Positions 8,302 to 10,287 of a stretch of 64,000 bases of DNA are shown here, in pieces. This DNA comes from an uncultured Pseudomonadota bacterium (lineage in GTDB: Bacteria > Babelota > Babeliae > Babelales > CAIQNR01). Location of the stretch: NCBI GenBank assembly GCA_964433415.1, contig CAYSQM010000006.1, positions 2,755 to 66,754 on the forward strand. Direction: 5' to 3'. Numbering within the stretch: the stretch's first letter is position 1; the number at the start of each line of letters is the position of its first letter. The position numbers and the translations under genes are program-made. The notes beneath the pieces were generated by a model that saw only the letters and a list, made by a program, of their open reading frames with translations, was not told the DNA's origin and ran no database searches.

Positions 8302-8574
8302 ATGATTGTAAAGAATCTACTTCTTTCTGTCATCATAGGATGTGGGATAGCATTAGTATATATTATATTACTGATGCCATCCCGATCCTTTTTTGTATCT
8401 AAACGATTCTCTATACACTCTGTTTTTTTCACTTTTATAAGTTCTTTAGTCCGCATTATACTTATAGGACTCTTATTCTTTTATGTATTGCGTACGGACT
8501 ATCTGAGTAGTATACTAATACTTGCTTCCTTTGTTGGATGTTCATGGACTCTTTTCCTCTCTAATAGGACGTAA
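8302..8574 (+). CDS. small membrane protein, ATP synthase protein I (AtpI/AtpZ)-like by position
   Basis: 90 aa with 3 hydrophobic helices, immediately upstream of the F0 subunit a gene. No diagnostic motif. Confidence 0.4.
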   Translation: MIVKNLLLSVIIGCGIALVYIILLMPSRSFFVSKRFSIHSVFFTFISSLVRIILIGLLFFYVLRTDYLSSILILASFVGCSWTLFLSNRT

Positions 8575-8578
8575 TATT

Positions 8579-9310
8579 GTGGATAATTTTAATGCCCTTG
8601 ATGCCAAACCTTTTTGGACGCCACTTGCATGCTATGGAATAACCAATCCATTAGCAGCACTTTCTCAAGAACCACTTATTAGCACTTGGATTGCACTTTT
8701 ATTATTAATTATTACAATTGCCATACTGCGTCGATCTTTACATAAAAAATCTGGTCCTGTTTATTGGACAGCTGTTTCATTAGTAAAAAGTTTTATGGAC
8801 CTCTGCACTCAAACACTGGGTGATTTTCATTATGGTCATTTTTGTTTTATTACCACTCTTTTTGTATTCATTTTTTACTGTAATGTTTTAGGATTAATTC
8901 CTTTTGTAGAAGAGCCAACTGCTGATTTAAATACTCCGCTTGCACTTGGTATTATCGCCTTTTTCTATACCAATATTTATGCGATCAAAGCACATGGCAT
9001 CAAAGGATATCTTAAAGAATTTTTCCAACCTTTCTTTTTAATGTTTCCGTTACATGTCGTTGGAAAACTTGCTGGTATCATTTCAATATCATTTAGATTA
9101 TTTGGTAATATTTTTGGTGGTGCAATTATTTCCAATATTTATTTTAGTGCAATAGGTCATTCTTATATACTTGCACCTCTTGGATTACTTTCAGGGATGA
9201 ACTTTATAGTTTCACTATTTTTTGGTGTTTTTGAAGCCTTTATTCAAGCATTTATTTTTGCAATGCTAACGCTCACTCATCTTTCAATACAAATTCAAGA
9301 AGAACATTAA
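8579..9310 (+). CDS. atpB: F-type ATP synthase F0 subunit a
   Basis: FRLFGNIFGGAII contains the conserved essential Arg motif; 5-6 TM helices. GTG at 8579 lies 5 nt after the upstream stop with AGGA before it. The ORF track offers an overlapping TTG at 8522. Confidence 0.8.
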   Translation: MDNFNALDAKPFWTPLACYGITNPLAALSQEPLISTWIALLLLIITIAILRRSLHKKSGPVYWTAVSLVKSFMDLCTQTLGDFHYGHFCFITTLFVFIFYCNVLGLIPFVEEPTADLNTPLALGIIAFFYTNIYAIKAHGIKGYLKEFFQPFFLMFPLHVVGKLAGIISISFRLFGNIFGGAIISNIYFSAIGHSYILAPLGLLSGMNFIVSLFFGVFEAFIQAFIFAMLTLTHLSIQIQEEH

Positions 9311-9318
9311 GGAATTTC

Positions 9319-10287
9319 ATGGATTATGGCACAGTTTTTTTTCACTATGGCACCATTGCAATTATTGTAGCAGTTAACGCTATAGGAGCTGGGATTGGTG
9401 GAGGACTTATTAGCAATGCTGCATTAAATGCTCTTGATCAACAACCAAATGCTCACGATTCTATAGGTCAAATATCATTTTTAGGAATTGCACTCATTGA
9501 AACTGCAAGCATTATTAGTCTTACTATGGCATTTTTATTATTGTCACGCCATGTACATTTAGAAAATCAATTTTTTAGTCATTTAAGTGAAATCGGCATT
9601 TTATTTTCTCTTGGCATTACTGGACTAATTACAGGAATAGCTTCAGCAATGCCTGCACGTGCTGCTTGCTATTCAACTGCCCGCCAACCATTCTCTAGCC
9701 AAAAAATTCGTGTCTTAATGCTTCTTACTCAATCACTTATGCAGACACCAGTTATTTTAAGTTTTATTATAGCATTACTTATCAACTATCAAATTCCTTA
9801 TGCTTCCTCACTAGGTGATGCCTTACGCCTTATTGCTAGTGGTTTATGTATTGGTATTGCAAGCATTGGCCCATCTTATGGACTTGCAATCTTTTCTGAA
9901 CAAGTCTGCAAGGGCATAGGTATTAATCGTAATGCCTATAGTTCATTACTTTCATCTACTCCTATTAATGCTGCTATTATTGAATCACCTATTATCTTTT
10001 CATTGCTCGTTTCATTTTTAATACTTCGCACATCTTCAACAGTCAATGATCCTTTATTTTTAGGGCTTACCTGCATAGCTGCTGCATTATGTATGGGACT
10101 ATCTACTCTTGGAACAGGAATTAGTTCTGGAAAAATAGCCGCAAGCGCTTCAAAACAAATTGCTCTTTCTCCTCATTACGCATCACTTCTTTCAAAAAGT
10201 AGTTTATTTGCTCAAGCACTTATTGAAACAAGTGCAATTTATGGATTAGTTATTGCACTATTTTTAATTACTACTAATCTGACATAA
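9319..10287 (+). CDS. atpE: fused F0 c-subunit: four proteolipid hairpins in one 322-aa polypeptide
   Basis: Four tandem units, each with a Gly/Ala-rich helix, a polar loop (DQQP, ARQP, INRN, LSPH) and a helix with the carboxylate position (IETAS, MQTPV, IESPI, IETSA). Confidence 0.7.
   Translation: MDYGTVFFHYGTIAIIVAVNAIGAGIGGGLISNAALNALDQQPNAHDSIGQISFLGIALIETASIISLTMAFLLLSRHVHLENQFFSHLSEIGILFSLGITGLITGIASAMPARAACYSTARQPFSSQKIRVLMLLTQSLMQTPVILSFIIALLINYQIPYASSLGDALRLIASGLCIGIASIGPSYGLAIFSEQVCKGIGINRNAYSSLLSSTPINAAIIESPIIFSLLVSFLILRTSSTVNDPLFLGLTCIAAALCMGLSTLGTGISSGKIAASASKQIALSPHYASLLSKSSLFAQALIETSAIYGLVIALFLITTNLT

Follow-up and report, generated by a model that had tools for sequence, protein, structure and literature searches.

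How does an F-type ATPase run on a rotor subunit made of four fused hairpins, one of them without its ion-binding carboxylate, and where is the catalytic part of such an enzyme when no gene for it lies nearby? These questions are raised by a locus in a 64-kb stretch of contig CAYSQM010000006.1 (the window, by which we mean the whole stretch of DNA that was analysed). The source belongs to the Dependentiae (TM6, Candidatus Babelota) and is presumably an obligately intracellular bacterium that imports host ATP and has no respiratory chain. The locus encodes a small membrane protein, an F-type subunit a and a fused rotor protein that we call c4. We propose, with a probability of about 0.7, that c4 forms the c-ring of an F1Fo enzyme whose genes are dispersed and whose main activity is ATP-driven ion pumping.

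The number of ion sites in a c-ring sets the ion cost of ATP and is a central gear ratio of bioenergetics. Two ways of changing this gearing are known: altering ring size, and fusing hairpins while removing sites, as in V/A-type enzymes and one acetogen. c4 would represent a third solution, fixed in a phylum of energy parasites, in which an F-type unit of four hairpins carries exactly one silent site.

The initial annotation described c4 as four consecutive c-subunit hairpins, and domain searches and structure prediction agree with it. Pfam PF00137 (ATP-synt_C) matches the protein in four non-overlapping stretches (E = 6e-32; 110 bits against a cut-off of 24). AlphaFold2, run on an alignment of 52 sequences, predicts eight long helices paired as four hairpins, with a mean local confidence score (pLDDT) of 93.9 and a predicted TM-score (pTM) of 0.90. 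The NCBIfam models for F0F1 subunit c also match in four stretches, at 95-106 bits; the V-type K models score no higher than 44 bits and stay below their cut-offs of 101-211 bits. Because the F0F1 c scores exceed the V-type K scores and the partner subunit a belongs to PF00119, we classify c4 as F-type by sequence and reject a V-type proteolipid identity. We also considered an N-ATPase, the operons of which have the order atpD-C-Q-R-B-E-F-A-G. This identity was rejected: TIGR03322 scored 69.8 against a cut-off of 130.85 and TIGR03306 scored 91.5 against 302.1, and no F1 genes are adjacent.

c4 departs from the usual F-type c subunit in two respects. It does not consist of one hairpin of about 70-90 amino acids (aa) per polypeptide, and it does not carry a helix-2 carboxylate in every hairpin, since hairpin 2 has Gln142. 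TIGR01260 reaches 65 bits on c4 (cut-off 43.95), and the c-subunit NCBIfam models that pass do so only by summing the four hairpins. There is no c4-specific model in NCBIfam.

A fused reading frame of this kind could in principle arise from collapsed tandem c genes or from reading through four separate genes, a possibility that the initial annotation had flagged. We consider the probability of such an artefact negligible. The identical 322-aa protein occurs on five contigs that were assembled independently from different sequencing runs, and more than 240 homologues of the same length are known, some of them on chromosome-level long-read metagenome-assembled genomes (MAGs). Hairpin-to-hairpin identity within c4 is 15-28%, and the gene contains only one internal DNA repeat, of 18 nucleotides (nt). 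This divergence excludes a recent duplication or a collapsed assembly and points to an old fusion.

We then examined how widely c4 occurs. The full-length homologues, more than 240 in number, are 295-335 aa long and about 28-85% identical to c4. Among 5.8 billion proteins searched, at least 120 homologues were found, 45-85% identical and 292-331 aa long, with nearly all in the range of 315-331 aa; several are named Candidatus Babeliales, an order that belongs to Candidatus Babelota. With HMMER, 146 clusters among 1.84 billion cluster representatives were found at E ≤ 1e-30, nearly all of 300-330 aa. The survey of related genomes called for in the initial annotation was made with one genome per GTDB species; 92 genomes carry a c4 relative, and all those with informative names are Dependentiae, Babeliales, TM6 or Vermiphilus. 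The cultured Babela massiliensis has the same arrangement, listed as gene_640 (FolC), gene_639, gene_638 (AtpB) and gene_637, a 320-aa "AtpE" with eight transmembrane (TM) segments (PMC4378268 supplement). The Babela protein is 38% identical to c4, and both have Gln at site 2. Several public MAGs with this Dependentiae-specific cluster bear names such as 'uncultured Pseudomonadota', 'Proteobacteria bacterium' and even 'Alteromonas naphthalenivorans' (L010, L013, L017, L026, L034, L037 and others); these names are probably taxonomic mislabels.

The ion-site residues are those first described, namely E61, Q142, E222 and E303. We assessed residue conservation in an alignment of 52 c4 relatives and site patterns in 242 full-length family members. 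Site 61 is Glu or Asp in 52 of 52 relatives, with Q42 and P43 of the hairpin 1 loop invariant. E222 and N203 of hairpin 3 are likewise invariant. Position 303 in hairpin 4 is Glu in 40 and Asp in 12 of the 52; S270, P285, Q299 and I302 are invariant, and Y308 is kept in 51. Hairpin 2 is equally constrained: Q142 and the ARQPF loop do not vary among the 52 relatives. In the larger set, site 2 is Gln in 213 members, Glu in 20 and Met, Leu, Val or Thr in 9. A carboxylate is absent from this site in 222 of 242 members, and the Gln of the second unit is real and conserved, as originally noted. Read from site 1 to site 4, the commonest pattern is EQEE (109 members), followed by EQED (86), EEEE (16), DQED (10) and E-(M/L/V/T)-E-(E/D) (9); the remaining patterns are a few singletons. 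These patterns, and the separate invariant signature of each hairpin, show that the asymmetry between hairpins is conserved and under selection.

The family tree also bears on how the silent site arose. In clustering by the unweighted pair group method with arithmetic mean, 19 of 20 proteins carrying a site-2 Glu group apart from the large Gln group, which itself encloses the Met, Leu and Val variants. Because a divergent E-E-E-E group exists outside the Gln group, the simplest history would be a fusion with four active sites first, after which the hairpin 2 carboxylate was lost essentially once. The nesting of the Met, Leu and Val variants suggests that the Gln itself is dispensable and that site 2 is a true silent site.

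The partner of c4 is a normal F-type subunit a, as the initial annotation had stated. It matches PF00119 over profile positions 2-216 of 217 (E = 2e-40) and TIGR01131 at 109.5 bits (cut-off 102.6). Its stator Arg (codon 9095-9097) lies within an RLFGN motif that, together with Q242, is invariant in 82 orthologues. The gene directly adjoins c4 and ends 8 nt upstream of it. The longest open reading frame (ORF) for subunit a starts at TTG 8522 (262 aa) and overlaps the small upstream ORF by 53 nt. A GTG at 8579 sits 4 nt past the stop of that ORF and gives a protein of 243 aa, which matches orthologue lengths and is the product called on independent contigs. For these three reasons we take GTG 8579 as the likely start.

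The small ORF upstream of subunit a had been called AtpI-like. That it is a real gene is clear from homologues at the same place in 79 related loci, among them Babela gene_639 (84 aa, 3 TM, 'hypothetical'; PMC4378268 supplement). Its orthologues share an invariant Arg51 in TM2 (codon 8452-8454) and near-invariant G13, G17, Y20 and W82. The likeness to AtpI is weak: the window copy has no significant Pfam match, and 12 of 28 orthologues match PF03899 (ATP-synt_I) below threshold (best E = 0.0012). AtpR (PF12966) was touched by only 1 of the 28, at E = 0.47. Size and position immediately upstream of atpB agree with AtpI/UncI, and an AtpI/UncI-like identity is plausible but sub-threshold. AtpI/UncI proteins help assemble c-rings, and Acetobacterium woodii presumably has an AtpI-type gene upstream as well. 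According to the title of reference 55 in PMC9171764, functional production of the A. woodii hybrid-ring enzyme requires its native AtpI. We regard the small ORF as encoding a putative ring-assembly chaperone. On Logan contigs of the same species this ORF is uncalled, and a 65-aa ORF on the minus strand (8259-8456) is called instead; the latter is probably spurious.

With its small AtpI-like protein, subunit a and c4, the cluster would supply the membrane ion path and the rotor, and b, delta, alpha, gamma, beta and epsilon would be encoded elsewhere. The cluster is F0-only locally, as the initial annotation observed, and a cysK-like gene of the PALP family follows at 10420. A regex scan of the six-frame translation found no alpha or beta Walker A motif in the window, and tblastn with Babela AtpG found no gamma there. 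Within 10 kb of c4, none of 80 related loci from species genomes contains alpha, beta or gamma.

From the local picture alone, a and c4 could be an orphan Fo without F1, used, for instance, to conduct ions in a passive or gated manner or to serve another machine as its rotor; the initial annotation had raised such a non-ATP role. Genes for F1, b and delta are indeed absent within 10 kb of c4 in the window and in the 80 related loci. We nevertheless consider an orphan Fo very improbable. The published comparative table for Babela massiliensis has AtpA, AtpD, AtpG, AtpH, AtpF, AtpC and AtpB in one copy each, gamma is conserved across the phylum, subunit a keeps all its canonical motifs, and the stalk-contacting ARQPF loop of c4 is invariant. 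The atp genes of Dependentiae are scattered, not missing.

The gamma gene illustrates this dispersal. In Babela, atpG stands alone at 491 kb, some 190 kb away from a and c4, with a PIN/YacP gene, TsaE, a tRNA cluster, L33, SecE, NusG and L11 as neighbours. Babela AtpG as query returned 665 homologues, of which the named ones are Candidatus Dependentiae. When Walker and gamma scans were run over 85 loci (1.5 Mb), matches occurred in the gamma loci alone. Gamma stands by itself beside TsaE/YacP at every gamma locus examined, and at two of these, as in Babela, it lies 2-9 kb from a SecE-NusG-L11-L1-L10-L12-rpoB cluster. No contig was found to carry both c4 and gamma: gamma P0164 and c4 P0409 are separate records with non-overlapping loci, and a protein search for a conspecific of the OY969115.1 (L027) c4 on the gamma-bearing 1.73-Mb contig found none.

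The window itself stops in the same ribosomal protein and RNA polymerase cluster. Short contigs of the same species (L092, L095) continue it in the order rpoB-L12-L10-L1-L11-NusG-SecE-tRNA-Trp-L33-tRNA-Thr(GGT)-tRNA-Thr(TGT)-tRNA-Gly(TCC). This is the Babela order, and it holds until the contigs break in the tRNA cluster. In Babela, the shared tRNA cluster is followed by tRNA-Tyr, TsaE and the PIN/YacP gene, and then by the lone atpG. Synteny predicts atpG a few kb past the end of the window, and we infer that F1 is encoded in the window's own genome. Attempts to extend toward the predicted gene found no atpG on the contigs reached, which were at most 7.5 kb long in an L10 look-up and a single 3.4-kb contig in an exact-pattern scan of Joint Genome Institute (JGI) metagenomes.

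What kind of rotor would c4 make? We picture a homomeric ring of n copies, with 4n hairpins. Hairpins 1, 3 and 4 would bind the coupling ion through Glu or Asp, and hairpin 2 (Gln, or Met, Leu or Val in some lineages) would bind none. Since three of four hairpins carry a carboxylate, such a ring would have 3n ion sites, and one turn, which yields or consumes 3 ATP, would move 3n ions; the ratio would be n ions per ATP, an integer. The ion/ATP ratio would be 25% below that of an ordinary ring of equal diameter. That a four-hairpin unit with one dead site confines the ring to multiples of four hairpins and lowers the ions per turn, as the initial annotation had reasoned, follows directly from the architecture. 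The choice would be limited to rings of 8, 12 or 16 hairpins.

We think that the enzyme would run mainly in reverse, hydrolysing imported ATP and energising the membrane. Previous reports are in line with this direction: TM6 genomes all encode ATP synthase and ATP/ADP translocases and lack an electron transport chain, and their ATP synthase has been proposed to hydrolyse ATP and sustain the membrane potential (PMC4776705; PMC6561590). Fewer ions per ATP mean a larger ion-motive force per ATP in an ATP-driven pump. The maximum force is the phosphorylation potential divided by the product of the ratio and F; at an illustrative 50 kJ/mol, it is about 130 mV with 4 ions per ATP and about 173 mV with 3. 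The same gearing argument has been applied to V-type proteolipids and to the A. woodii ring (PMC9171764). A low ion/ATP ratio fits an ATP importer that needs membrane potential for many secondary transporters.

The same complex could instead be a synthase, in which the c4 ring cuts the ion cost of ATP and another pump supplies the gradient. TM6 genomes do encode a pyrophosphate-energised proton pump (H+-pyrophosphatase) (PMC4776705), and enzymes with reduced site numbers still make ATP at 90-150 mV (PMC9171764). We find this direction quite unlikely, because the respiratory chain is absent and ATP is imported through translocases. In addition, fewer ions per ATP raise the threshold force for synthesis, which is unhelpful when gradient sources are weak.

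For the ATP-driven pump, ring size is a separate matter. It is conceivable, although we hold the idea only tentatively and with the odds against it, that three c4 form a 12-hairpin, 9-site rotor whose exact three-fold symmetry matches F1 with its three catalytic sites. One c4 would then pass in each 120-degree, one-ATP step, with three ions and one silent step, at 3 ions per ATP. If true, nature would have an F-type motor that lacks the usual symmetry mismatch between rotor and stator. Its hairpins would have distinct roles, the dead one attaching the stalk through ARQPF and the other three carrying ions. A c4 dimer (8 hairpins, 2 ions per ATP) may be an equally unusual alternative.

The loops of c4 are compatible with such a division of labour. 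The RQP loop of F-type c subunits contacts gamma and epsilon, and the only invariant RQP loop of c4 is that of the dead hairpin 2. This hairpin may be specialised for stalk attachment, with ARQPF probably the main contact for the foot of gamma and epsilon.

To ask which ion is coupled, we compared the c4 sites with the Na+ ligands of Ilyobacter tartaricus, which are helix-1 Gln32, Glu65, Ser66, a polar residue at 67 and Tyr70 (PMC2359735). In our alignment, hairpin 4 has S270, E303, T304, S305 and Y308 at these positions, and hairpin 1 has G28 (Gln in the family consensus), E61, T62, A63 and I66. Hairpins 2 and 3 both have Pro at the equivalent of position 67. Because the full Na+ ligand set is present at no c4 site, the coupling ion is more likely to be H+ than Na+.

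Several observations weigh against our proposal. In the 64 kb covered of the window's own genome, no F1 gene was found. The E-T-S-x-x-Y of hairpin 4 is similar to the Na+ motif, and in hairpin 1 the family consensus includes the helix-1 Gln, features that leave Na+ as a less likely coupling ion. In classic E. coli work, one neutralised c subunit reportedly can block Fo; if so, a dead site at every fourth hairpin would need an adapted a/c interface. There is, in favour of our proposal, a precedent for a tolerated dead site in A. woodii, whose ring contains one V-type c subunit and still makes ATP (PMC9171764). The last observation against it is that the Babela COG table gives a count of 2 for COG0636, an ambiguous figure that would allow a second c gene.

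This last point concerns a hybrid ring, in which c4 is one component beside a single-hairpin c encoded elsewhere, as in A. woodii. Ring size would then not have to be a multiple of four, and fewer than a quarter of the sites would be dead. The closest solved relative of c4, A. woodii c1, works in just such a ring and has the same E-to-Q dead site. We judge a hybrid ring unlikely for c4. The COG0636 count is unreliable, as several genomes with an F-ATPase were scored 0 and one protein of four hairpins can leave two footprints, and c4 is the only c gene adjoining subunit a phylum-wide. The c genes of A. woodii are grouped within its atp operon; for c4, a scan for further c-like ORFs (40 aa or longer) gave none, either in the window or at distances of up to 10 kb from c4 in 80 related loci. 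The initial annotation had envisaged that an F1 operon elsewhere might come with its own single-hairpin c gene. F1 and stalk genes do lie elsewhere, as Babela shows, and the c gene is the part that was not found in the regions just named. Because no separate single-hairpin c gene was found, c4 is most likely the rotor subunit of a real F1Fo.

If c4 does form the whole rotor, it lets one observe in nature how a rotor moves a neutral site past the a/c interface, and it tests whether F1 and Fo really need mismatched symmetries. It also links rotor gearing to lifestyle, through ATP import and reverse operation. Metabolic reconstructions that score "F-type ATPase" by operon completeness would miscall dispersed atp genes such as these. 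The system is experimentally accessible through cultured members, namely Babela, Vermiphilus and Chromulinavorax.

The features of the locus are collected in Table 1. The four genes at 6838-10287 form a tight plus-strand cluster of a FolC/Mur-ligase-like gene, the 90-aa membrane ORF, subunit a and c4, separated by 9, 4 and 8 nt. The order Sua5 (minus strand)/FolC/small ORF/a/c4 ... PALP is kept in megabase chromosomes and in Babela massiliensis. The FolC-like (folylpolyglutamate-synthase-like) gene, coupled here to Fo genes, is syntenic with the Babela 'FolC' (gene_640) and with relatives phylum-wide. Downstream, the PALP gene converges with a metallo-beta-lactamase-fold gene (11282-12328, minus strand), the longest ORFs overlapping by 113 nt.

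Table 1. Coordinates of the c4 locus, its hairpins and other genes of the window (positions are those of the window).
Feature	Position	Strand	Remarks
FolC/Mur-ligase-like gene	6838-8292	+	Heads the cluster; Mur ligase domains matched weakly, below Pfam cut-offs
Small membrane protein, 90 aa, 3 predicted TM segments	8302-8574	+	Candidate c-ring assembly factor
F-type subunit a (atpB)	8579-9310	+	Likely start GTG 8579, 243 aa
Shine-Dalgarno-like AGGA	9310-9313	+	5 nt before c4 start; overlaps subunit a stop; read from sequence
c4, 322 aa, four fused F-type c hairpins, 8 TM helices	9319-10287	+	
Hairpin 1, aa 1-80	9319-9558	+	Loop D-Q-Q-P; carboxylate E61 (GAA 9499-9501)
Hairpin 2, aa 81-162	9559-9804	+	Loop A-R-Q-P-F (9679-9693); Gln142 (9742-9744) replaces carboxylate
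Hairpin 3, aa 163-240	9805-10038	+	Loop I-N-R-N; carboxylate E222 (9982-9984)
Hairpin 4, aa 241-322 and stop	10039-10287	+	Loop S-P-H; carboxylate E303 (10225-10227), then T-S-A-I-Y
PALP-family (cysK-like) gene	10420-11394	+	Begins 132 nt past c4
rpoC	54419-58540	-	Near window end
rpoB	58533-62864	-	Near window end
L10	63360-63887	-	Window stops inside rpoC-rpoB-L12-L10 cluster

How does c4 compare with known rotor subunits? By sequence and by fold, the best PDB match is A. woodii c1 (4BEM_J), and the second-best folds are Enterococcus hirae NtpK and eukaryotic V-type c. Chloroplast and bacterial c subunits are also among the best matches. Each match covers at most half of c4, and the PDB holds no four-hairpin rotor subunit. 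Like c4, A. woodii c1 belongs to an F-type enzyme, has covalently fused hairpins and has one ion-binding Glu replaced by Gln. The dead site lies in hairpin 2 of both proteins, within AVAQTTGIY in c1 and SLMQTPVIL in c4. The two differ in that c1 has two hairpins with one of two sites active, whereas c4 has four with three of four active. Moreover, the A. woodii ring contains c1 only once, together with nine single-hairpin c2/3 subunits whose genes are neighbours of the c1 gene. Unlike c1, c4 has no companion c gene in the regions searched, and its architecture is phylum-wide.

The archaeal A-type c/K subunits, such as the triple hairpin of Methanocaldococcus jannaschii and the 13 hairpins of Methanopyrus kandleri, are natural covalent hairpin multimers as c4 is. 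Some have lost ion sites, which has been read as tuning of the ion/ATP ratio (PMC2359735; PMC9171764). They are of the A/V type and work with a V-type subunit a/I, whereas c4 is F-type with a PF00119 partner. Mulkidjanian et al. described c duplication, triplication and the 13-hairpin M. kandleri protein (PMC2359735), and for natural c subunits a 2022 paper gives hairpin numbers of 1, 2, 3 or 13 (PMC9171764). Other natural multi-hairpin c proteins came up in our search of cluster representatives, none of them from the window. P0331 (1139 aa) has 15 hairpins, all with Glu, and P0344 (968 aa) has about 12 with a Trp-rich helix 1. P0356 and P0371 have five hairpins, with a carboxylate in hairpin 1 only and Gln in the other four. 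P0382 also has five, with Glu in all five by eye (one by regex count).

V-type proteolipids, namely E. hirae NtpK and eukaryotic c, c' and c'', are double hairpins with one carboxylate and the classical case of reduced ions per ATP in a pump. They belong to another enzyme class, with half of the sites dead and 4 TM helices (5 in c''), and each spans only half of c4, with TM-scores of about 0.4 relative to the query and about 0.8 relative to the target. The c subunits of E. coli and Bacillus PS3 have also been fused by engineering (c2, c3, c4 ... c10), and these fusions show that covalent linkage is compatible with ring assembly and rotation. Such constructs were used in PMC8809890. They are laboratory-made identical repeats, whereas the Dependentiae c4 is natural and ancient and has four diverged, conserved hairpin classes.

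In the literature searched, we found no description of a four-hairpin c and no comment on the Dependentiae c subunit. The gene itself has been deposited and annotated as "subunit c" since 2015, and its 8 TM segments are noted in the Babela table (PMC4378268 supplement). The principle of fusion combined with site loss is already known from the systems above; what c4 adds is an F-type unit of four hairpins and three sites that is fixed in a phylum and encoded apart from F1.

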